Of a DNA stretch of 64,000 nucleotides, positions 2,585-34,205 are shown piece after piece. The position numbers and the translations under genes are program-made. Origin of the DNA: a virus. Every line of letters starts with the position of its first letter. Position 1 is the first letter of the stretch. The stretch lies in IMG/VR virus record IMGVR_UViG_3300045988_112022. One strand, written 5' to 3'. The notes under the pieces were generated by a model, which worked only from the letters and a program-made list of their open reading frames with translations, ran no database searches and was not told the DNA's origin.

Positions 2585-2812
2585 ATGAATAGAATGAAAT
2601 TCGAAGGACGTATGAACTATTTTATGTTAACTGCCATCAGATCGGCTAAGAATGAAGATGGATTGATATCCGATCGAGATTTAAAAGCTATAGAACTGAT
2701 GAAGGAACTTATTGGTTATGCGGAGGAATTGAACTACGAAATTGAAAAACTCAAGAAAGAAGTGAGCAATTTGAAAAGAGAAAACGAGAGAGCAGAGAAG
2801 ATAGGGGCATAG
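2585..2812 (+). CDS. hypothetical coiled-coil protein
   Basis: Track ORF with GGAGAG RBS. C-terminal heptad-like EELNYEIEKLKKEVSNLKRENE. Confidence 0.6.
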   Translation: MNRMKFEGRMNYFMLTAIRSAKNEDGLISDRDLKAIELMKELIGYAEELNYEIEKLKKEVSNLKRENERAEKIGA

Positions 2813-2828
2813 CCTCTGTCTTTTATTT

Positions 2829-2855
2829 TCGCGTAGAAATCAGCCCCTTTTATGA
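2829..2855 (+). promoter_or_regulatory. TCGCG-N16-TAATGA box, copy 3
   Basis: TCGCGTAGAAATCAGCCCCTTTTATGA, upstream of CDS 2888. Confidence 0.5.
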
Positions 2856-2887
2856 GAAGAAAACATATTTTGAAGGAGGTTTTTATT

Positions 2888-3082
2888 ATGTCAATTAAAG
2901 AGAGGAAAGAAATCACAAAGATGCTCGTGAAAGTAGAAGTGGTGATATTGATGATGATATTTACAATAATATTGTTACACACAATGCCACTTGCTGGAAC
3001 CGCAATGTTTGTGGTCGACTGTATTTCTATTGGCTTATATGCCAAAGCAAAATCTGAAGAATACGAGGAAGAGTTCTATTAA
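2888..3082 (+). CDS. small membrane protein
   Basis: Track ORF 2852-3082. GAAGGAGG RBS precedes the ATG at 2888. Two hydrophobic helices. Confidence 0.55.
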   Translation: MSIKERKEITKMLVKVEVVILMMIFTIILLHTMPLAGTAMFVVDCISIGLYAKAKSEEYEEEFY

Positions 3083-3320: not shown

Positions 3321-3545
3321 ATGGTATATTTAGTTTTTCTTGGCGGAGTGTTTATAGGTGCTATTATCACTTGCGTTATTCATCAGAAAACATCTGCACA
3401 TGGATATTTTACCGTTACACCATATTCAGATGATGAGATTGCAGTTGATGAGGGATTCTATTCCGTGAAAGTATCCTTGCCAAAAGATGTAAACCTCGTG
3501 AATAAAGGCAGGATTATCTTACATAATTCCAATTCGCACAAATAA
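3321..3545 (+). CDS. small membrane-anchored protein
   Basis: Track ORF with GAGGAGG RBS and an N-terminal TM helix. Confidence 0.6.
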   Translation: MVYLVFLGGVFIGAIITCVIHQKTSAHGYFTVTPYSDDEIAVDEGFYSVKVSLPKDVNLVNKGRIILHNSNSHK

Positions 3546-3595
3546 CAGCTTCTTTTATGGAAACGTATTAATTTATTTTTAAGGAGGATTTCAAA

Positions 3596-3982
3596 ATGGA
3601 AACTATTGAAGAATTATTAAAAAATGAACTTGAAGTGGAACTCGAAGCTTTGGGTAAAACAAATCTTGGTTCGGATGATTATAAGGTAGCAGTTGATGGA
3701 ATCACCAGGCTTATGGACAGACATATCGAGATTAGCAAGCTTAACGATGAATATGAACTTAAAAGAGATGCACGAGAAATCGATACAGATCTTAAAGTTC
3801 AGCAGATGAAAGCAGATGCTAAGGATCGAAAAATCAAGTATGCCATAAGTATTGGTGAGACAGTCGTATCTACTGCAGTAATTATCTGGGGCACTTTGAA
3901 ATCATTCAAATTCGAGGAAAACGGAACAATTACTACAATAATGGGACGAGGTTTCATTAACAAACTTCTTCCGAAGAAGTAA
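3596..3982 (+). CDS. hypothetical protein with C-terminal TM helix
   Basis: Track ORF with AAGGAGG RBS. Confidence 0.65.
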   Translation: METIEELLKNELEVELEALGKTNLGSDDYKVAVDGITRLMDRHIEISKLNDEYELKRDAREIDTDLKVQQMKADAKDRKIKYAISIGETVVSTAVIIWGTLKSFKFEENGTITTIMGRGFINKLLPKK

Positions 3983-3998
3983 AATACGGATAAGCAGG

Positions 3999-4028
3999 GA
4001 CGCTGAGGAAACTTGGCGTCTTTGTTTT
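3999..4028 (+). terminator. rho-independent terminator
   Basis: GACGCTGAGG..CTTGGCGTC hairpin followed by TTTGTTTT. Confidence 0.5.
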
Positions 4029-4083
4029 ATTTTGTTTACACAATTATGTAGGAGTAGTATAATTAATTGGTACATTCAACTCT

Positions 4084-4998
4084 ATGGGGGAAATACGAAA
4101 GATGAAAGAAAAATTGTTATCAAAGAAAATACTACCAGTTCTACTATGTGTGATACTCATCGCAGGCTCCGTATGTTTCGGAACATTCATAGCAAGTAAG
4201 CCTAATACCTATAAGAAAACAATAGCCGAGCTTGATGAAAAATCCGCAGATGTTGCCAAAATGTCAGTCGCTACATTGGGCATGTCTACTTTAATTGCAG
4301 CTGTTCCGGGAGACACAACCACTCCAATCGCTGATTATCTTGTAGATTTAAATTCATGGTTACTGATAATCATGATGGTTTTGACGCTGGAAAAATATTT
4401 GCTGACAATAATCGGAAAAGCGGTATTTTGGCTCATAATACCTATAGGATTAGCTTTGATTGGGATAAGTATTCCTCCCAAAAGTCAATCATTAAAAATA
4501 AGAGGTTTTAACATTCTATTGGCTGGGCTTTTAGTATGGGCGATCGTCCCTACCGGAATGATGATATCCAGAGATATTGAAAGAACATATAGTTTTTCAG
4601 TAAGCGATGTTGCTAATGAAACCGAGAATATTCAGAATAAAGCAGCGGAAATAGAAGAGAACGACGATTCTGAAGAGTCAGATGGCGAGGAGGACGAAAA
4701 CATCATAAGCGGATTTATTTCGAAAGCCAAGGATGCCGTTGAAGATGTTATTATAAACCCGCTCGAAGAAAAAGTCGCTCAGGCCAAGAAAATGGTGAAT
4801 ACCGTGGTCAATGCGATCATCGTTTTGGTTATAACATCTTGTGTGATTCCATTGTTTACGTTAATTGCGTTCTTATTATTAATAAAAATAACATTGCATT
4901 TAGATCTACTTGGGGAAATAGATTCCGTACGGTTAGCGTTGGTTTCGGGACAGAAAAATGCACTCGGTAAAATCAAAATAAAACACAAAAAATCTTAA
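4084..4998 (+). CDS. multi-pass membrane protein with acidic loop
   Basis: Track ORF; the start could instead be the ATG at 4102. Several TM helices and an EENDDSEESDGEEDE loop. Upstream TTTACA-N17-TATAAT looks like a canonical sigma-A promoter (about 4036-4064). Confidence 0.7.
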   Translation: MGEIRKMKEKLLSKKILPVLLCVILIAGSVCFGTFIASKPNTYKKTIAELDEKSADVAKMSVATLGMSTLIAAVPGDTTTPIADYLVDLNSWLLIIMMVLTLEKYLLTIIGKAVFWLIIPIGLALIGISIPPKSQSLKIRGFNILLAGLLVWAIVPTGMMISRDIERTYSFSVSDVANETENIQNKAAEIEENDDSEESDGEEDENIISGFISKAKDAVEDVIINPLEEKVAQAKKMVNTVVNAIIVLVITSCVIPLFTLIAFLLLIKITLHLDLLGEIDSVRLALVSGQKNALGKIKIKHKKS

Positions 4999-8139: not shown

Positions 8140-8913
8140 ATGAACGTAAAAATGACACTCAGAAGAAACTCACCAAAGCTCCTGGCAATACTCGCTGCGA
8201 TGGGGACGGTATCTACGGCATTCGCAACGGCGAGAGCCACACCAAAAGCACTGTTACTTATTCAGGAGGCGGAAGCTCAAAAAGGAGAGGATTTGACTGC
8301 ACTTGAAAAAGTTAAAGTAGCTGCAGTGCCTTATGTTCCAGCAGTGTTACTTGGCTCGGCTACTATTGCGTGCATATTTGGAGTTCAGATGTTGAATCGA
8401 AAGACTCAATCCTCTATGACCAGTGCATACGCTTTGTTGGATCAGGGCTTTAAAGACTATCGGCGAAAACTTAAGGAATTATACGGTGACGAGGCAGATA
8501 AGAAAGTTATCGAAGCTCTGGCGGTAGAGAAGTCTCAAACAGTATATATCAATGCCTCCTATTTGGATGGACCTTGTGATTTAGCCCTAGAAGAAAATTC
8601 ATCTAAACCGGTTCTCTGGTACGATGAATATTCAAAGAGATTCTTCACAGCCAGTCTCGAACAGGTTCTCATGGCAGAATACCACCTGAACCGAAATTAT
8701 ATTCTCAGAGGAGAAGCTGTGATAAACGAACTGTATGAATTCCTCGGCCTGGAGCCTACTGATTGGGGTGCTGAAGCCGGATGGGCTCCGATGGATGAAG
8801 GAATGTTCTGGATCGAATTCAACCACATTCCGGCAAAACTTGATGATGGTTCCGTCTTTTATATTATTGAAATGCCGTTCGAACCAATTCTGAACTATGA
8901 TGAATATTACTGA
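8140..8913 (+). CDS. membrane-anchored protein, paralogue A of a three-member family (DUF6353-like by recollection)
   Basis: N-terminal SPKLLAILAAMGTVSTAFATARATPKALLL and C-terminal INELYEFLGLEPTDWGAEAGW are shared with CDS 9166 and 11567. Confidence 0.75.
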   Translation: MNVKMTLRRNSPKLLAILAAMGTVSTAFATARATPKALLLIQEAEAQKGEDLTALEKVKVAAVPYVPAVLLGSATIACIFGVQMLNRKTQSSMTSAYALLDQGFKDYRRKLKELYGDEADKKVIEALAVEKSQTVYINASYLDGPCDLALEENSSKPVLWYDEYSKRFFTASLEQVLMAEYHLNRNYILRGEAVINELYEFLGLEPTDWGAEAGWAPMDEGMFWIEFNHIPAKLDDGSVFYIIEMPFEPILNYDEYY

Positions 8914-8914
8914 C

Positions 8915-8941
8915 TCGCGAGAATTCCAACGACTTTAACGG
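8915..8941 (+). promoter_or_regulatory. TCGCG-N16-TAATGA box, copy 14 (degenerate 3' block)
   Basis: TCGCGAGAATTCCAACGACTTTAACGG. Confidence 0.35.
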
Positions 8942-8959
8942 AAAGGAGGTATACTAGAA

Positions 8960-9112
8960 ATGAAGAAATATGATTTAATAAAAATGGCTGGTTGGATTGC
9001 TGTGGCTATTGGCGGATTAGTTGCTAGCTGGGCTACAGATAAGCAGTCGAAAGAAGAAATCGACAAAAAACTTGAAGAGTATATTACCGAGAAAACAGAT
9101 AAGGAGTCCTAA
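8960..9112 (+). CDS. 50-aa membrane peptide
   Basis: GAAAGGAGG RBS. Product MKKYDLIKMAGWIAVAIGGLVASWATDKQSKEEIDKKLEEYITEKTDKES. Ends in GAG TCC TAA. Confidence 0.5.
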   Translation: MKKYDLIKMAGWIAVAIGGLVASWATDKQSKEEIDKKLEEYITEKTDKES

Positions 9113-9128
9113 TGGGCTTCTTATTTTT
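9103..9128 (+). terminator. terminator (degenerate family member)
   Basis: GGAGTCC-TAAT-GGGCTTC followed by TTATTTTT. Confidence 0.5.
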
Positions 9129-9165
9129 GTTTTAACAAAACTATGTTCATTTGAAAGGAGATATC

Positions 9166-9972
9166 ATGAACAAATCTGTAACAAAATTCATTAAAACTGT
9201 GAAACGAGGATTCGGAAAACGAAGTCCTGAGATTCTGCTCGGGATTGGCATTGCGAGCGGCATTACCGCGACTGTCTTAGCGGTTAAAGCTACCCCGAAA
9301 GCATTGGAACTTCTGACTGAAAAGAGATATGAGAAATATGGCGATACGTTGAAAGAAGATGATTCGTACGATGATATGCCAGAACTCAAGCCCGTTGAAG
9401 TAGTCAAAACCACATGGAAATGTTACATTCCAGCAGCTATCAGTGGTGCTGCATCCATCGCTTGTCTGCTCGGATCTCATTCGGTACATGCGAAAAGAAA
9501 TGCCGCACTGGCTACAGCCTATAAATTATCCGAAACGGCACTGAACGAATACCGTGAAAAAGTTGTAGAGGAAATCGGTGAAGAGAAAGAGAAAGTCATC
9601 CGAGATAAAGTTTCCCAGAAACATCTGGACGAGACGCCTGTATCCAAAAACGAAGTGATCATCACAGGGACTGGTAAGCAGCTTTGCTATGACGGCATTT
9701 CCGGACGATATTTTGAATCAGACATTCAGACAATCCGCGCTGCAGTCAACAAGATCAATGAAACCATGGTGTACGAGATGTATGCGGCATTAAATGATTT
9801 CTATAATGAAATCGGTTTGAGTAATACAGACATGGGTGATGAACTTGGCTGGAATCTTGATGATGGTTTACTCGAAATAAGTTACGGAGCCATGGTCGCG
9901 GATGACGGTAGACCTTGCATTACTCTGGACTATCATATTGCGCCGAGATACGACTTCTCAAAGCTTATGTAG
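9166..9972 (+). CDS. membrane-anchored protein, paralogue B
   Basis: Track ORF 9151-9972. GAAAGGAG RBS precedes the ATG at 9166. Motifs: SPEILLGIGIASGITATVLAVKATPKALELL ... NDFYNEIGLSNTDMGDELGW. Confidence 0.75.
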   Translation: MNKSVTKFIKTVKRGFGKRSPEILLGIGIASGITATVLAVKATPKALELLTEKRYEKYGDTLKEDDSYDDMPELKPVEVVKTTWKCYIPAAISGAASIACLLGSHSVHAKRNAALATAYKLSETALNEYREKVVEEIGEEKEKVIRDKVSQKHLDETPVSKNEVIITGTGKQLCYDGISGRYFESDIQTIRAAVNKINETMVYEMYAALNDFYNEIGLSNTDMGDELGWNLDDGLLEISYGAMVADDGRPCITLDYHIAPRYDFSKLM

Positions 9973-9974
9973 AT

Positions 9975-10001
9975 TCGCGAAAAATACATATTGTTTAATG
10001 G
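9975..10001 (+). promoter_or_regulatory. TCGCG-N16-TAATGA box, copy 15
   Basis: TCGCGAAAAATACATATTGTTTAATGG. Confidence 0.45.
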
Positions 10002-10036
10002 AAAGAATATAAAAATCTGAAAGGAGATTATTTAAG

Positions 10037-10345
10037 ATGAAAGAAATCAAAGCAGAAGAGGTTAAAGAAGTTGAGGTAACTACAGAAGAGAATACGGAGA
10101 CAGAAGTAGCCACTGAAGAAGTTAAGGAATCAAAGCTTAAAGCTTTTGGAACGAAAGTAAAAAGCGGGTTACAGAAACACGGAAAGAATATTGCAAAAGG
10201 TGCAGTGATCGGACTGGGTTTGGTAGCAGCTTATGCGATCGGATCAAGAGCTGGAGGCAGCGATGATGATTCTGACGTGGTAGCTGATTCCGATTATGTA
10301 ATCGACGAAGCTGAATCTACCGATGATGAAGCATCAGAAAACTAA
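10037..10345 (+). CDS. acidic protein with central TM helix
   Basis: Track ORF with GAAAGGAG RBS. Glu/Asp-rich termini. Confidence 0.65.
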   Translation: MKEIKAEEVKEVEVTTEENTETEVATEEVKESKLKAFGTKVKSGLQKHGKNIAKGAVIGLGLVAAYAIGSRAGGSDDDSDVVADSDYVIDEAESTDDEASEN

Positions 10346-10363
10346 GATTTATATTCTCTAACA

Positions 10364-10401
10364 GGGGAGTACCTATAACAAGGTATTCCTCTTTTTGTTT
10401 T
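10364..10401 (+). terminator. rho-independent terminator
   Basis: GGGGAGTACCT..AGGTATTCCTC followed by TTTTTGTTTT. Confidence 0.6.
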
Positions 10402-10420
10402 CAACGGAAAGGAGCGTATC

Positions 10421-10612
10421 ATGCCCAGGTATATTTACAAAGGTCCGGTCATGGAATTCAACACTCTTCTTGCTGATATTTGGGAGGGAGAGACTGTTGC
10501 TCCTTCTGAGAAGAAAGCAAGGAGTAATTTAACATATCAGTTTAAGAAAAGAAATAACCGTATTGCGGGAACACGCATAACGTTACCCGGAAAAATTATG
10601 ATGGTTGATTAA
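10421..10612 (+). CDS. hypothetical protein
   Basis: Track ORF with GGAAAGGAG RBS. Confidence 0.6.
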   Translation: MPRYIYKGPVMEFNTLLADIWEGETVAPSEKKARSNLTYQFKKRNNRIAGTRITLPGKIMMVD

Positions 10613-10625
10613 GAGAGGAGAACTC

Positions 10626-11216
10626 ATGGAAGATTATAAATCAAATTCCCATAAAGCAAAAGCTGAAGCTAAAGAAGCTGCTGAGAAAAAAGTAAATAAG
10701 GTCGTTACCGGTAATGTTAAGAGAAAAAAGAAGAGTGAGGTAAGCAAATTCAAAGATGTATTTATCTCCGAGGATGTATCTAATGTCAAAACTTATATTT
10801 TTCTTGACGTGCTGGTACCGGCAATCAAGAAAGCTGTCTCAGATATTGTGAAAGACGGAATCGATATGATGTTATATGGAGACAAACGAAGCAGCAGTCG
10901 TGGCTCATCCAGTTATGTATCATATAGATCATATTCCGATAACACGAGTCGTAACTCAAGAAGGTCGATAAGAGCCAGCTACGATTTTGATGATGTGGTG
11001 TTCGATACCCGAGGCGAGGCTGATGAAGTGTTATCCAGCATGGACGAATTGATGGATACTTACGGAGTTGTCAGTGTTGCTGATATGTATGATTTATGTG
11101 GCATGACTTGTAACTACACAGACAATAAATACGGTTGGAAGAGCCTTGCCAGAGCTGATATCTTAAGTGTTCGGGACGGTTACATGATCAAACTTCCAAA
11201 GGCAGAACCGATTTAA
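10626..11216 (+). CDS. hypothetical protein (basic N-terminus, Ser/Arg-rich centre)
   Basis: Track ORF 10605-11216. GAGAGGAG RBS precedes the ATG at 10626. Confidence 0.65.
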   Translation: MEDYKSNSHKAKAEAKEAAEKKVNKVVTGNVKRKKKSEVSKFKDVFISEDVSNVKTYIFLDVLVPAIKKAVSDIVKDGIDMMLYGDKRSSSRGSSSYVSYRSYSDNTSRNSRRSIRASYDFDDVVFDTRGEADEVLSSMDELMDTYGVVSVADMYDLCGMTCNYTDNKYGWKSLARADILSVRDGYMIKLPKAEPI

Positions 11217-11225
11217 GGAGAAGAT

Positions 11226-11567
11226 ATGGAAGATCTAAAAGAGATTATTTTAAAAACTGAATACAGTAATAAATTCGATGAGATTAGAAAAAACCTCGTC
11301 GTGCAGTCATATTTCAAATACGGGAAAGCTTCAAGAAATTTCGTAGCAGGGTATGTGGATGCGATTGGATCGCTTAAAAAGTGTATTCAGAAATTTGAAG
11401 AAACAGGTAACTTAGAATATCTGGCAGACGCTGCAAACTATTGCATGTTCAGATACATGTATCCACAAACAGGAGAATATTTCAAGCATACTGATTCCAA
11501 CGAATCTGCCGGAATTGATGGTATGTCAGTAAAAGAAATCGAAGAGTTTAAAAAGGAGAACGAATAA
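11226..11567 (+). CDS. hypothetical protein, possibly an all-alpha NTP pyrophosphohydrolase (MazG/DUF550-like)
   Basis: KYGKASRNF...NLEYLADAANYCMF resembles the family signature. Weak, from memory. Confidence 0.5.
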   Translation: MEDLKEIILKTEYSNKFDEIRKNLVVQSYFKYGKASRNFVAGYVDAIGSLKKCIQKFEETGNLEYLADAANYCMFRYMYPQTGEYFKHTDSNESAGIDGMSVKEIEEFKKENE

Positions 11568-12499
11568 TGAAAAAATTAGCATTTATGAATACTATTTCCA
11601 GATCAGCACACAGAATGGCATTTAAGCTTCAGAAACACAGCCCGGAAATCCTTGTGGTGGCTGGAGTAATCGGCGCGGTGGCAAGTGCAGTGATGGCTTG
11701 CAAGGCCACAACTAAACTGGGCGATATTTTAGACGACTCCAGAGATAAAATTGATTCCATTCATGATGTGATTGAGAATCCGGATAAGGTTAATGCGGAG
11801 TATACACAGGAAGACGGAAACAAAGATCTTGCTATTGTATATACGCAGACCGCTCTGAAGGTTGCTAAAGTTTATGCTCCTGCGGTTATTCTCGGAGGAT
11901 TATCTATCACGGCTATTCTTACGTCTAACAATATTCTCAGAAAGAGGAACATTGCACTGGCTGCAGCTTACACAGCAGTCGACAAAAGCTTCAAAGAATA
12001 TCGTGGAAGAGTCGTTGAAAGATTCGGAAAGGAATTGGATAAAGAGCTCCGTTACAACATCAAAGCTAAGGAAGTGGAAGAGACTGTTACCGACGAAAAA
12101 GGTAACGAAAAAACTGTGAAAAAGACTGTCGACGTAGTAGATCCAAATGCCATCAGTGAATTTGCGAAATTCTTCGATGATGGATGCATTGGATGGACCA
12201 AAGATCCGGAACTCAATATGATTTTCTTACGCCAGCAGGAAGCAGCGGCAACTAAACGTCTGGAAGATCGTGGACATTTATTCTTGAATGAAGTATACGA
12301 TATGCTTGGCATCCCACACACAAGAGCAGGTCAGATTGTAGGATGGATCTATGATAAAAAGAATCCGATCGGTGATAACTATGTCGATTTCGGCATTTAC
12401 GATACTAGCAAAGAAGCGAATCGTAACTTTGTGAACGGATACGAAAGAACAATTCTGCTTGATTTCAATGTTGATGGAAACATCCTTGATCTAATGTGA
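11567..12499 (+). CDS. membrane-anchored protein, paralogue C
   Basis: SPEILVVAGVIGAVASAVMACKATTKLGDIL ... NEVYDMLGIPHTRAGQIVGW. Confidence 0.75.
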   Translation: MKKLAFMNTISRSAHRMAFKLQKHSPEILVVAGVIGAVASAVMACKATTKLGDILDDSRDKIDSIHDVIENPDKVNAEYTQEDGNKDLAIVYTQTALKVAKVYAPAVILGGLSITAILTSNNILRKRNIALAAAYTAVDKSFKEYRGRVVERFGKELDKELRYNIKAKEVEETVTDEKGNEKTVKKTVDVVDPNAISEFAKFFDDGCIGWTKDPELNMIFLRQQEAAATKRLEDRGHLFLNEVYDMLGIPHTRAGQIVGWIYDKKNPIGDNYVDFGIYDTSKEANRNFVNGYERTILLDFNVDGNILDLM

Positions 12500-29789: not shown

Positions 29790-30455
29790 ATGATGTTGAA
29801 TTTTAACAGTTATGAAGATCTCAAAGACAAACTGCAGATTCGTATTTATGATCCTGATTTCAGTCGTAATTTATTGGAAGGAAAAGTTGTAACTCATATT
29901 GGCGATTTCGCTCTGGTTTATATGGCTACCTTGTATGAATCAGAAAAAAGACTGGGTAATCTGATGTTTACTCAGGAGTTGATGGATGTGCTTGGGATTG
30001 ATATTCAGACATTACATAGGGATGCCATGATCAGCGATATGAATTACGAACCGGTATTATTCACTACTGAGGATCTCATTGAAGCGTTTGCCCTTAAAAA
30101 ACCATTGTTTGCGATTAATTTATTCAATAGAAAAGTTCGTATGCGAGGTGATAAGTTACCGATGCTGACGCTCACTAAAGGTAATCAGATGAACGGAGCC
30201 AGTTTGATATTACATAAGAGCATTCGGAAGAAGATCGGAGATATCGTCGGTGGTAACTTTTATGTTCTCCCATCATCCATTCATGAAGTCATGATTATTC
30301 CGGAAGAGGGGTTTGAAGCAGGCGAATTATCCAAACTGGTATCCACGTGTAATTCCCAATTATACACAGAAGCAAATTCAAAAGATATTTTATCAGATAA
30401 GGTTCAGTGGTGCAGTATGGACGGAGAAATTCTCAGGAGAGCAGAAAATGAATAG
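29790..30455 (+). CDS. hypothetical protein (DUF5688-like by recollection)
   Basis: Track ORF with AAGGAGG RBS. FYVLPSSIHEVMIIP motif. Confidence 0.65.
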   Translation: MMLNFNSYEDLKDKLQIRIYDPDFSRNLLEGKVVTHIGDFALVYMATLYESEKRLGNLMFTQELMDVLGIDIQTLHRDAMISDMNYEPVLFTTEDLIEAFALKKPLFAINLFNRKVRMRGDKLPMLTLTKGNQMNGASLILHKSIRKKIGDIVGGNFYVLPSSIHEVMIIPEEGFEAGELSKLVSTCNSQLYTEANSKDILSDKVQWCSMDGEILRRAENE

Positions 30456-30846
30456 AGCAGAAATGAGACGTATGAAGCGAGAACAGGAGAAAGCTCATAC
30501 CGCAACCTACAACCTGACGCAGGCGCAGCTGGACGCTATCGTTCAGGAAAAAATCGGGGTTAAGATCGCCGAGACTAAGAAAGATGTTTATGAAGAAACT
30601 GTTAATACTGTACTAGCGTTGGTTCTCACCCTGCCATTAGAAGTGCTCATGGATCACTATTGGCCTAAATCATATCGTGAACGACTTCCGGGATTCGTGG
30701 GTAAAGTTCTGGAATATTACGGACGTTGGGAAGACGGTGAATTGGATATGGATAAGCTCAAAGAAGATTTATGGGAATATGGCGGAATCCGGTTGGAACC
30801 AGCGCAGATAGATATGGAGGATATTTCAAAGAATAATGAAAAATGA
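30448..30846 (+). CDS. hypothetical protein
   Basis: In-frame ATG at 30448 within track ORF 30313-30846, overlapping the previous stop. Confidence 0.6.
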   Translation: MNRAEMRRMKREQEKAHTATYNLTQAQLDAIVQEKIGVKIAETKKDVYEETVNTVLALVLTLPLEVLMDHYWPKSYRERLPGFVGKVLEYYGRWEDGELDMDKLKEDLWEYGGIRLEPAQIDMEDISKNNEK

Positions 30847-31081
30847 TTTAAAGCGGAATGGGTCTGGATGTCTGGACCCTACTGCATATCAGGCTATTAT
30901 GAACGCCGATGCTGTGTCATCGGTGGATAAAGCAAATAGGTACAAACGTAGAGAAAACGATTCAGAGGAACGACTCAATAAATTACTCACTGCTATATTC
31001 GCTATTTGTGACGCTTCGGATTTTCATATTGAAGAGAGGATCGTAGTTAAGGATAAACGGACCGGGAAGATTTGGAGGTAG
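30836..31081 (+). CDS. hypothetical protein
   Basis: Track ORF. Confidence 0.55.
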   Translation: MKNDLKRNGSGCLDPTAYQAIMNADAVSSVDKANRYKRRENDSEERLNKLLTAIFAICDASDFHIEERIVVKDKRTGKIWR

Positions 31082-31085
31082 TGGG

Positions 31086-31268
31086 ATGAGTAAAAAGAAA
31101 GGGAGACCGAAGAAAGATTTCGCTCGGGAGTACCAGTATCGAGTGCGTTTATCACTTGGCGATATTTATACTTTAGAATATATACAGGAAGTGACTGGTA
31201 AAACAAAGGCCGAAATTTTCAGAGATGGATTGAAAGCGGAGTATGAAAAGGCGAGACGGCTTGATTAA
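31086..31268 (+). CDS. small ribbon-helix-helix-like DNA-binding protein
   Basis: Basic N-terminus KKKGRPKKDFAREYQYRVRLSLGDIYTLEYIQEVTGKTKAEIFRDGL fits a beta-strand plus two helices. Sits directly upstream of the iteron array. Confidence 0.5.
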   Translation: MSKKKGRPKKDFAREYQYRVRLSLGDIYTLEYIQEVTGKTKAEIFRDGLKAEYEKARRLD

Positions 31269-31283
31269 TTGGATATCCAAAAA
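31269..31283. repeat. iteron 1 (type A: GATTAATTGGATATCCAAAAAAT)
   Basis: Core TTGGATATCCAAAAA contains the 12-bp palindrome TTGGATATCCAA. Confidence 0.9.
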
Positions 31284-31300
31284 ATGCGAAAAATGAATTA

Positions 31301-31315
31301 TTGGATATCCAAAAA
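31301..31315. repeat. iteron 2 (type B: GAATTATTGGATATCCAAAAAGTC)
   Basis: 32 bp from iteron 1. Confidence 0.9.
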
Positions 31316-31367
31316 GTCACGAATATTAATCGTTGCAGGAGGTACAGGTTTGAATTATTGGATATCC

Positions 31368-31382
31368 AAAAAGTCTACGAAA
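31368..31382. repeat. iteron 3 (type B)
   Basis: 67 bp from iteron 2. Confidence 0.9.
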
Positions 31383-31399
31383 CGATTAATTGGATATCC

Positions 31400-31414
31400 A
31401 AAAAATCGGAAATT
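31400..31414. repeat. iteron 4 (type A)
   Basis: 32 bp from iteron 3. Confidence 0.9.
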
Positions 31415-31460
31415 AGCCCAAAATAGGCTAAAAATGGCTTAAAATGGCTATTTTCATCAT

Positions 31461-31548
31461 GGTACTGTAGTACCGATCTAATTAGCTATCTTATTTATTT
31501 AAAAAATTGAATTTTTCGTATAGCTAATATACATTGTACTACAGTACC
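31461..31548. repeat. long imperfect inverted repeat around an AT-rich core
   Basis: Outer arms GGTACTGTAGTACC (31461-31474) and GTACTACAGTACC (31536-31548). Inner arms TTAGCTAT (31482-31489) and ATAGCTAA (31520-31527). Confidence 0.85.
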
Positions 31549-31585
31549 ACCATTTATTGTACGTACAATAAAGAAAGGAGATTCT

Positions 31586-31816
31586 ATGACTGAACAGGAG
31601 CTTATTGAATCGTTTGCAGGCAACTTGGATTACATTATGAGATCGGAACATATGAATCAAAGTGAGCTGGCACGAAGGAGTCATTTGAGTAGGGAGTCAA
31701 TCTGTAAATATTTAAAAGGTCAGCGTATGCCTACGTTGAAGGCACTTATGAATTTAAGCTATGCCTTGAGATGCAACATTGAAGAATTAACTCCGTTTAT
31801 TCAACTTATCGATTGA
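31586..31816 (+). CDS. XRE-family HTH regulator
   Basis: MNQSELARRSHLSRESICKYLKGQRMPTLKALMNLSYAL. Confidence 0.8.
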   Translation: MTEQELIESFAGNLDYIMRSEHMNQSELARRSHLSRESICKYLKGQRMPTLKALMNLSYALRCNIEELTPFIQLID

Positions 31817-31826
31817 GGTGACGGAA

Positions 31827-32261
31827 ATGAGCGAATTAAAAAAACAATGGATTGACGATGAATATCTGTGGCAGGATTTCTTGGACTACTTCAATCCAGA
31901 CTTCGATGAGATTGCCGATATTAAACAGATGAGCTGTTATGATATTCTGGTCACCATGAAAAATGGGGTGCAATATATTTACGACAATTACCGTCAGACA
32001 CGAAGGCGACTCCCAAATAGTTGGGATGATATGAGTCTTAAAGAATTTCATATGGATGCACATATAAGATTATATTCTATGATGAAGCGGGAAGGTTTCA
32101 CATATGATGACCTGTCTGAAGAAACGGGCATATCTCCAGGAACTATAAGTAATTATGTGAATGGCGTGACATCCCCAACCCTCGACAGATTATTTCTGAT
32201 TGCCAAAGCATTAGGCTGCCGGATTGAAGACCTAATCTATATCGAGCATATGTACAGATAA
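31827..32261 (+). CDS. protein with C-terminal XRE-family HTH
   Basis: Track ORF 31818-32261 with an ATG at 31827. FTYDDLSEETGISPGTISNYVNGVTSPTLDRLFLIAKAL. Confidence 0.75.
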   Translation: MSELKKQWIDDEYLWQDFLDYFNPDFDEIADIKQMSCYDILVTMKNGVQYIYDNYRQTRRRLPNSWDDMSLKEFHMDAHIRLYSMMKREGFTYDDLSEETGISPGTISNYVNGVTSPTLDRLFLIAKALGCRIEDLIYIEHMYR

Positions 32262-32319
32262 CCCATGAGGGCGCTTGGTTTACAGGCGCTCTTTTTTTGG
32301 TGCAGAAAGGAGATATTCT

Positions 32320-33659: not shown

Positions 33660-34205
33660 ATGACTGAATTCTATAACGGTTGGGAAGAAAATGAAGTATG
33701 GGTTAATCTTGAGCGTTTCCCGAAACATCAAATCAGCACATTCGGTAGAATACGGAATAAATGTAGCGGCCATATTCTCAAACCATTTTTGGACAGATAC
33801 GGTTATCTACGGGTTAGCATCGGTAATACCGATAATGTATACATACATCGTCTAATGTGTGAAACTTTTTATGGCGCACCAAAATTCGATCGAGCTCAAG
33901 TTAACCATATAGATTGCGATCGAGAAAATAACCACATATTTAATCTTGAATGGTGTTCAGCTAAAGATAACATAAAATGGGCTTGTGAACACGGAAAACT
34001 AGATTATAAAAAAGGGTTGAAAATGGCGGTTAAAGCCAACGTAAAACCTGTCCGGATAATAGAACTCGATAAAACCTTTTCGAGTGTAAAAGATTGTGCC
34101 AAATTTCTTCATATAAATCCGAATAGAGTAAGTAGATGTCTTATCGGATCAAGAAAAGGGCAACGTATACATGGATATCATATAGAGTACGCGGAGGCAG
34201 AATGA
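33660..34205 (+). CDS. HNH homing endonuclease (NUMOD4-like N-terminus, HNH_3-like core, C-terminal DNA-binding module)
   Basis: FPKHQISTFGRIRN..GYLRVSI..HRLMCETFYG..VNHIDCDRENNHIFNLEWCSAKDN. Confidence 0.8.
   Translation: MTEFYNGWEENEVWVNLERFPKHQISTFGRIRNKCSGHILKPFLDRYGYLRVSIGNTDNVYIHRLMCETFYGAPKFDRAQVNHIDCDRENNHIFNLEWCSAKDNIKWACEHGKLDYKKGLKMAVKANVKPVRIIELDKTFSSVKDCAKFLHINPNRVSRCLIGSRKGQRIHGYHIEYAEAE

Follow-up and report, generated by a model that had tools for sequence, protein, structure and literature searches.

The locus

The window, that is, the whole 64-kb stretch of viral DNA that was analysed, contains a long non-structural arm whose last gene (31086..31268, plus strand) codes for a predicted ribbon-helix-helix (RHH) protein of 60 amino acids and is preceded by DUF5688, phrog_16126 and phrog_6568 genes. 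The preliminary description of this DNA had an array of palindromes starting right after the stop codon of this gene, and the first palindrome does begin at the base directly following the stop (31266-31268). There are four exact copies of TTGGATATCCAAAAA, with starts at 31269, 31301, 31358 and 31390; the sites themselves, TTGGATATCCAA in each case, occupy 31269..31280 (with the end and the stop codon of the RHH gene as 5' flank and A6 as 3' flank), 31301..31312 (32 nt past site 1), 31358..31369 (57 nt past site 2) and 31390..31401 (32 nt past site 3). The start-to-start spacing is 32/57/32 and the distance from pair to pair 89 nt. The preliminary description was right about the number of exact copies, the position of the first two and the 32 nt within pairs, but it placed the last two 10 nt too high (at 31368 and 31400) and the pairs 99 nt apart; its argument from helical phasing relied on these wrong coordinates of the second pair and is not supported.

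No further copy of TTGGATATCCAAAAA with up to two mismatches was found in the 64-kb window, and in a shuffled-sequence control the mean number of matches was 0.37, with none of 100 shuffles reaching eight. Perfect TTG-N6-CAA palindromes are restricted, in the window, to the four array copies and to one TTGTACGTACAA at 31557. The flanks are of the two types described earlier, GATTAA..AAAAAAT for copies 1 and 4 (A) and GAATTA..AAAAAGTC(T)ACGAA for copies 2 and 3 (B). The "ABBA" pattern that was read from them has no demonstrated meaning, because the A flank of copy 1 consists of the final codons and the TAA stop of the RHH gene, and because the pattern in close relatives is ABBB.

After the array come phased A-tracts, about 10 bp apart and alternating with GGCT/GCCC blocks (31409..31455: AAATTAGCCC AAAATAGGCT AAAAATGGCT TAAAATGGCT ATTTT), which probably form intrinsically bent DNA or else belong to a second family of repeats. 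The small repeats reported before are found here, at 31413-31449: TTAGCC (31413-18), GGCTAA (31426-31) and two copies of AAAATGGCT (31431-39 and 31441-49). A second repeat family after or among the RHH sites also occurs in other loci; its units are AAAATGGCT or AAAATAGGCT in the window and, elsewhere, GCCCACTTTT, in three to six copies and both orientations (L073, L142, L172, L203, L382, L139 intergenic).

The next element is a nested inverted repeat (31460..31549), with the 14-bp near-palindromes TGGTACTGTAGTAC and GTACTACAGTACCA outermost and, inside them, TTAGCTAT (31482-89), a 30-nt A/T core with TTGAAT, and ATAGCTAA (31520-27). We presume that this is the operator and promoter region of the operon that follows. 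Scans for σ70 promoters over 31460-31585 gave no convincing promoter for the first gene of this operon, so that "repression of a promoter" is not anchored here to a mapped start site. The outer palindromes (14-16 bp) differ with the downstream HTH genes, being GGTACTGTAGTACC in the window, TTACTATAGTA in L135 and another inverted repeat in L143, and they are therefore probably HTH operators; the inner pair TTAGCTAT/ATAGCTAA is kept across lineages. The counterparts of window 31460-31549 lie at 1868-1965 in L143 and at 1885-1985 in L135, and the A/T core between the inner arms of L143 resembles the reverse complement of the window core.

The operon itself, on the plus strand, is made of HTH1 (31586..31816), an XRE/Cro-type protein of 76 aa (HTH_26, 1e-9; HTH_3, 7e-8), and HTH2 (31818..32261, with an ATG at 31827), a protein of 147 aa with a C-terminal XRE HTH (HTH_3, 1e-14; Phage_CI_repr, 6e-4). 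A strong intrinsic-terminator-like hairpin on the same strand (32267..32293) closes it and is the first convincing one past ~29700; no intrinsic terminator was found between the RHH stop and HTH1. The palindromes lie in the control region of the two XRE genes.

Downstream of the HTH operon are genes for a NUMOD protein, a VRR-NUC-like endonuclease and a PD-(D/E)XK exonuclease, an HNH gene, and the gene for a two-barrel RNA polymerase of 992 aa; such a polymerase was present a few kb downstream in 10 of the 10 records tested. The presumed box promoters of this polymerase, TCGCG-N16-TWATGA, number 21 on the plus strand of the window, from 1635 to 29298, with none after. Two features of the surrounding genome may be recorded in passing. 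The HNH/NUMOD endonuclease gene just upstream of the polymerase gene (33660-34205) is absent from all 13 close relatives, whose alignments break off at 33663 and pick up again at 34204, the relative itself showing no gap; this stretch looks like a recent homing-endonuclease insertion. The non-structural arm also contains three DUF6353 paralogues, at 8140, 9151 and 11567 (region 8140-12499).

The RHH protein

The 60-aa protein has an N-terminal basic arm (GRPKK), a β-strand (Q17-Y18-R19-V20-R21-L22-S23) and two helices (24-37 and 41-59). It matches phrog_876, "transcriptional repressor", in PHROGs (1e-7); it has no Pfam match at E<=0.1, and its homologues P0060 and P0072 bear PF01402 and PF21983. 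The AlphaFold model (AF2), computed as a monomer from an alignment of 31 homologues, has a pLDDT of 87 and consists of an extended segment (15-23) followed by helices 24-37 and 41-59, the β-strand being left unpaired in the monomer. The best Foldseek matches of this model are all RHH proteins (the Arc-operator complex 1par, TacA, CopG-DNA, MatP, PrpA and NikA), with weak E-values, as expected at 60 aa. A profile search with the family gave weak matches to CopG and DUF1778 RHH chains (E 0.006-0.3), and a single-sequence search of the PDB gave only noise. As modelled, then, the protein belongs to the ribbon-helix-helix (Arc/MetJ/CopG) fold.

Co-variation of protein and palindrome

A scan of viral contigs for the motif returned three phage contigs with 3-5 copies, which in each of them lie directly after a homologous GRPKK...YRLRLS gene. 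A protein-based scan with the RHH returned 15 loci, and 13 of these (L116-L128; RHH 54-62% identical) are without TTGGATATCCAA. They have TTGTACGTACAA at +2, +34, +91 and +123 after the RHH stop, that is, at the same positions as the window array, and a fifth TTGTACGTACAA at +290, 28 nt ahead of the HTH1 start; their β-strand reads RLNVRLS, versus QYRVRLS in the window. A database search gave 77 RHH homologues, whose contexts were looked up, and with array-first scans for three palindrome types and an HMM search for the RHH the total came to about 40 distinct proteins. Arrays of TG-N6-CA palindromes follow the genes of these homologues or, in a few cases, precede them.

Throughout this set the core of the palindrome tracks two residues of the β-strand, and not one exception was seen in the ~40 distinct homologues. 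In brief, and in the numbering of the window RHH, R19 goes with GGATATCC, R17 together with N, E or G at 19 goes with GTACGTAC, and L, F, Y or M at 19 goes with GTATATAC. The full cores are TGGATATCCA where R19 is combined with Q17 or G17 (~17 different proteins, belonging to several diverged clades), TGTACGTACA for R17 with N, E or G at 19 (13 distinct proteins) and TGTATATACA for L, F, Y or M at 19 (5 distinct proteins), to which are added TGTCNGACA for R17 with T19 (L139) and TGTAWTACA for I17 with S19 (L140). Residue 17 co-varies with palindrome positions 6/7 and residue 19 with positions 4/9, which is comparative, not physical, evidence. The residues between and beside them (18, 20 and 22) remain hydrophobic, and R21 and the outer TG/CA are invariant across all RHH-array pairs compared. 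Variable residues at alternate positions are expected for an RHH β-ribbon, and the pairing of arginine with guanine and of hydrophobic residues with thymine is chemically sensible.

Two cores were predicted ahead of the look-up. For P0046 the prediction, GGATATCC, was borne out; for P0065 a TACGTA core was predicted and a half-palindrome pair was found in the gene's own promoter, which agrees in part. In five R19 loci the RHH domain heads a longer Zn-ribbon protein, and two GGATATCC sites lie upstream of the gene, in the manner of an ordinary operator.

Could the correlation simply reflect common descent of protein and sites? Several pairs of relatives speak to this. The proteins of L130 and L137 are 83% identical over the helices, yet their core types differ. 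Those of L129 and L135 are 71% identical, and essentially R19Y alone accompanies the change from G to T at position 4. L003 and L131 (also 71% identical) have identical site positions, including two inside the coding region, and differ in type, as do the window and L116, both with the spacing 32/57/32/167. By these comparisons the core type has switched four times or more while the rest of the scaffold stayed similar. With respect to the protein scaffold the types are polyphyletic, and shared ancestry therefore does not explain the residue-base correlation. It is almost certain, in our view, that the RHH protein encoded directly upstream has its cognate binding sites in the four palindromes. 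The preliminary description had read the array as one that binds protein, which the comparative evidence supports, and had named as candidate binders this protein and the two XRE proteins; the co-variation of β-strand and core and their joint exchange (see below) single out the RHH, and the XRE proteins are likelier to sit on other palindromes.

In some relatives the sites extend into the gene. Two sites lie within the 3' coding region of the RHH gene in L003 (1393-1441), L131 (2174-2222), L133 (2174-2216) and L167 (~4261), and these proteins end in an acidic C-terminal tail with a peptide repeat that is dictated by the site, IGYP for GGATATCC and NVYT for GTATATAC; with another type of site comes another tail, as between L003 (IGYP) and L131 (NVYT).

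A protein search of genome contigs with the RHH and a blastn search of 30300-32300 against phage and plasmid collections had no match, and a two-site DNA pattern run over genome contigs met unrelated loci only (Parapedobacter operators, archaeal coding repeats, and a ParA-linked repeat gene in a Chitinophagaceae MAG). In the last of these (L156, ~2990-3620 of contig JACMKU010000065.1) an apparent ParA C-terminus is followed by a gene with at least eight copies of (T)TGGATATCC(AA) in its coding region, and this repeat-filled gene ends in an RHH-like segment. It is possibly a type Ib partition locus that uses the same palindrome and is apparently unrelated to the phage family.

A cassette exchanged between related phages

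In pairwise alignment and blastn the window and L123 are 98% identical up to 31089, only ~65% identical over ~31119-31398, and again 99-100% identical from the A-tract of site 4 onward. The primase-helicase (replicase) is 96-99% identical between phages of the two core types. From the contrast between this divergent stretch and its near-identical surroundings we conclude that the protein and its sites were exchanged as one module of ~280 bp, made of the body of the RHH and the four sites (31119..31398, plus strand) and limited on the left by a conserved coding stretch (MSKKKGRPKK) and on the right by a conserved AAAAAATCGGAAATTAGCCC. Replacement of a protein together with its sites, between otherwise near-identical genomes, is a feature of exchangeable immunity or specificity modules, and related gut phages, by this comparison, trade the RHH and its sites as a matched cassette. 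Just outside it, L116-L128 have about 195 bp more than the window (locus ~2806-3000, falling between window 31085 and 31086); this stretch, a small ORF, separates their RHH gene from the phrog_6568 gene.

The fifth palindrome of the window, TTGTACGTACAA at 31557..31568 (extended form TTTATTGTACGTACAATAAA, 31553-72), lies close to the RBS of HTH1. It follows the same palindrome grammar, and its core is of the type paired with R17/N19 RHH proteins. In relatives the site at this position, whose 10-bp core begins 28-32 nt ahead of the ATG, is of the same type as their array. Among ~34 distinct arrays a distal site of another type occurs only in the window and in L143, whose RHH is 88% identical to that of the window and whose promoter region is different; elsewhere the distal site is of the array type. 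The window phage is thus a hybrid, in which a GGATATCC-type cassette has probably replaced a GTACGTAC-type one while the site at the RBS of HTH1 stayed of the old type.

Function of the array

What do these sites do? The order RHH, array, ~77-aa HTH, ~140-aa HTH is kept in all lineages, even with different upstream genes, and in all syntenic loci HTH1 comes after the array; in most lineages a homotypic site abuts its RBS. The array lies ~100-270 bp upstream of the presumed promoter core; the outer palindromes around this A/T core, which differ with the HTH genes, and the conserved inner pair give the pattern of a promoter with HTH operators (31460-31549). Distant homologues from cultured phages belong to switches that resemble Arc/ant. 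The RHH gene of Streptococcus phages has a σA promoter with GGTAACAC/GTGTTACC on its two sides and is followed by an antirepressor gene, and in C. difficile phiCD211 RepR is encoded on one side of the RHH gene, in divergent orientation, and an antirepressor on the other. On the strength of the conserved order, the site at the HTH1 RBS, the promoter- or operator-like region, the Arc-like homologues and the linked polymerase, we read the array as a multi-operator of the RHH: its most likely function would be the Arc-like control of transcription into the two-HTH operon ahead of the phage RNA polymerase gene. To the reading as a whole (cognate RHH sites, a portable cassette and an Arc-like multi-operator over HTH1-HTH2), which is drawn from sequence comparison, we would give a probability of about 0.6.

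The mechanism that we have in mind is the following. The RHH would be produced at the end of the long non-structural arm and would then occupy the array, with one dimer per 12-bp palindrome. The two-fold β-ribbon would read the central six base pairs, R19 reading G4/C9, position 17 the central step and the invariant R21 the invariant TG/CA, while the basic GRPKK arms would lie in the A/T-rich flanks. In relatives with sites of a single type it would bind the proximal site too. The bound protein would repress or road-block transcription that enters HTH1-HTH2, an operon directly ahead of the nuclease genes and the RNA polymerase gene, and the outcome would be feedback at the boundary of the two genome arms. 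In the window the proximal site is non-cognate, and the array may therefore act independently of it. Either the proximal site of the window and of L143 is dispensable or cross-bound, or the main job of the array is something other than repression of HTH1.

In a bolder version RHH and array form a programmable protein roadblock or insulator, a termination-feedback device for the phage's own RNA polymerase at the boundary of the arms. It would come in at least five orthogonal specificities, determined by two residues of the β-strand and swapped to escape cross-regulation by co-infecting relatives, and the window phage, with its non-cognate proximal site, would have been caught in the middle of such a swap. 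We consider this speculative and rather unlikely.

Somewhat less credit still is due, in our opinion, to the idea of a replication origin. It would consist of RHH-bound iterons, bent A-tracts and the A/T core within the 88-bp inverted repeat, with the RHH marking the origin for the primase-helicase, on the model of λ O at its four dyad-symmetric iterons and of the SaPI Rep/ori pairs, with sites just 3' of the initiator gene. In its favour are the four dyad-symmetric iterons, the phased A-tracts (31409-31455) and, between inverted repeats, an A/T-rich core (31476-31535), as well as the position where the replication arm meets the right arm. Initiator/ori pairs typically show matched and diversifying specificities of protein and site, and this is also what the RHH and its sites display. 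However, phages that differ in their cores have replicases 96-99% identical to each other, hence the replicase does not read the sites, and a 60-aa RHH is without a helicase-loading domain. Moreover, the cultured members of the family are in switch or antirepressor contexts, some members carry the same sites upstream of their own RHH gene, like an ordinary operator, and one further site abuts an RBS. Of the origin-type array proposed in the preliminary description there remain the iterons and their A/T-rich neighbourhood, but the co-variation of sites with the replicase is missing. The λ O/ori iterons are comparable in the same limited sense, with four dyad-symmetric sites and A-tracts beside A/T-rich DNA but no counterpart, in the family of the window, to an initiator that co-varies with them.

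That the array is a centromere-like site, where the RHH would coat the repeats like ParG, ParR or ω in order to segregate or pair genomes, seems to us improbable. RHH proteins that bind centromeres and have arrays of short repeats next to their own genes are well known, and here too repeated candidate sites adjoin an RHH gene, as in partition systems of types Ib and II; the Chitinophagaceae MAG, in which TTGGATATCC repeats fill the gene after a ParA gene, goes in the same direction. Yet no ParA, ParM or TubZ-like gene was found among the larger ORFs of the window (Pfam, PHROGs), which tells against the partition-like array of the preliminary description, and in every lineage the module goes with the HTH operon and not with an NTPase.

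We attach even less weight to the view that the palindromes are RNA or ssDNA hairpins, serving processing, stability or attenuation in a read-through transcript, or else sites of the downstream XRE proteins. The region folds as RNA far better than shuffles (z = -8.5), which repeated palindromes produce automatically, and the lack of a terminator between the RHH gene and HTH1 would allow read-through; but the core of a hairpin need not track residues 17 and 19 of the RHH, and no Rfam family scored above threshold. As for the XRE proteins, the half-sites are 6 bp apart, too close for an HTH dimer, and HTH1 is unchanged between the window and the L116-type phages though the cores differ. It is more likely that these proteins bind the palindrome pair at 31460-73 and 31536-49 rather than the array. 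Finally, an excisionase- or Cox-like role was ruled out since in the window the site copies are confined to the array, and a pac site since the terminase genes are 8 kb away.

Known and new

There is precedent for RHH repressors, for arrays of RHH sites (ω, ParR, ParG), for RHHs with a basic arm (ArtA, PMC2777438) and for exchangeable immunity modules. When the literature was searched for the motif and for phage RHH-array systems, nothing relevant came up except ArtA as an analogue. What is new, we believe, is threefold. The first point is that the array is fused to the stop codon of its own gene and is sometimes written into the coding sequence. The second is a natural recognition table, deduced from sequence comparison, of two residues versus two bases with at least five types. 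The third is the fixed place of the RHH-array unit before the HTH operon and the polymerase gene of a phage lineage.

RHH proteins are hard to retarget, and here is a family that forms a natural table in which two residues are matched with two symmetric base positions and a single scaffold has switched several times independently; its small, orthogonal pairs of repressor and operator should be useful as a set. The array also marks what is probably the point of control where the two genome arms meet, in a widespread lineage of gut phages with an uncharacterised single-chain RNA polymerase, and it illustrates phage mosaicism at a scale of ~280 bp, that of one protein and its sites.

Comparison with known systems

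The array might be, as the preliminary description suggested, the real genetic switch of the phage. One parallel is with lambdoid immunity regions, where matched specificities of protein and site are likewise swapped between near-identical phages with sharp mosaic boundaries. The differences are that the protein of the window is an RHH, not an HTH or winged helix, and that the cassette has only ~280 bp. The RHH is without its own promoter and lies at the end of a lytic-phase arm, so that classical lysogenic immunity is unlikely.

With ω (pSM19035), ParG and ParR the system would share one RHH dimer per short repeat, as well as a variable number and spacing of sites and the combination of a regulator with its array in cis. 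But those arrays serve a partner NTPase (δ, ParF or ParM), of which none was found in the window, and their repeats are direct or inverted units of 7-20 bp upstream of operons.

ArtA of pSK41 is an RHH with an extended N-terminal basic arm, which binds as a single dimer to an operator of ~10 bp and has multiple sites on one replicon (PMC2777438). The basic extension, the short operator and the several sites per replicon are points of likeness. On the other hand, no sequence relationship to the window RHH is shown, and ArtA sites are dispersed at several promoters of a plasmid, whereas those of the window form a tandem array fused to a phage gene.

Another system close in kind is the immI region of P22, with Arc and Mnt. 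There too a small phage RHH reads DNA by alternate residues of its β-strand (for the window protein, this is deduced from the comparison above), the Arc-operator complex is the best structural match of the window RHH, and the distant cultured homologues stand ahead of an antirepressor gene, just as arc stands ahead of ant. Arc, however, binds as a dimer of dimers to one 21-bp operator that overlaps its promoter, whereas the family described here has 2-6 separate palindromes of 10-12 bp, which start from the stop codon of their own gene or sometimes inside its 3' end and extend over 130-350 bp ahead of the next operon. A further difference from the Arc/Mnt switch is that no ant (antirepressor) gene lies downstream in the window phage.

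An observation on the cultured homologues may be added. In the Streptococcus phages phiJH1301-1 (L145) and Javan362 (L146), at 3440-4850, the RHH gene, a small gene and the antirepressor gene form a three-gene unit with its own operator-flanked σA promoter. The unit lies in the replication module of one phage and between the terminase and portal genes in the other, and this presence in different modules suggests that it is a mobile moron.
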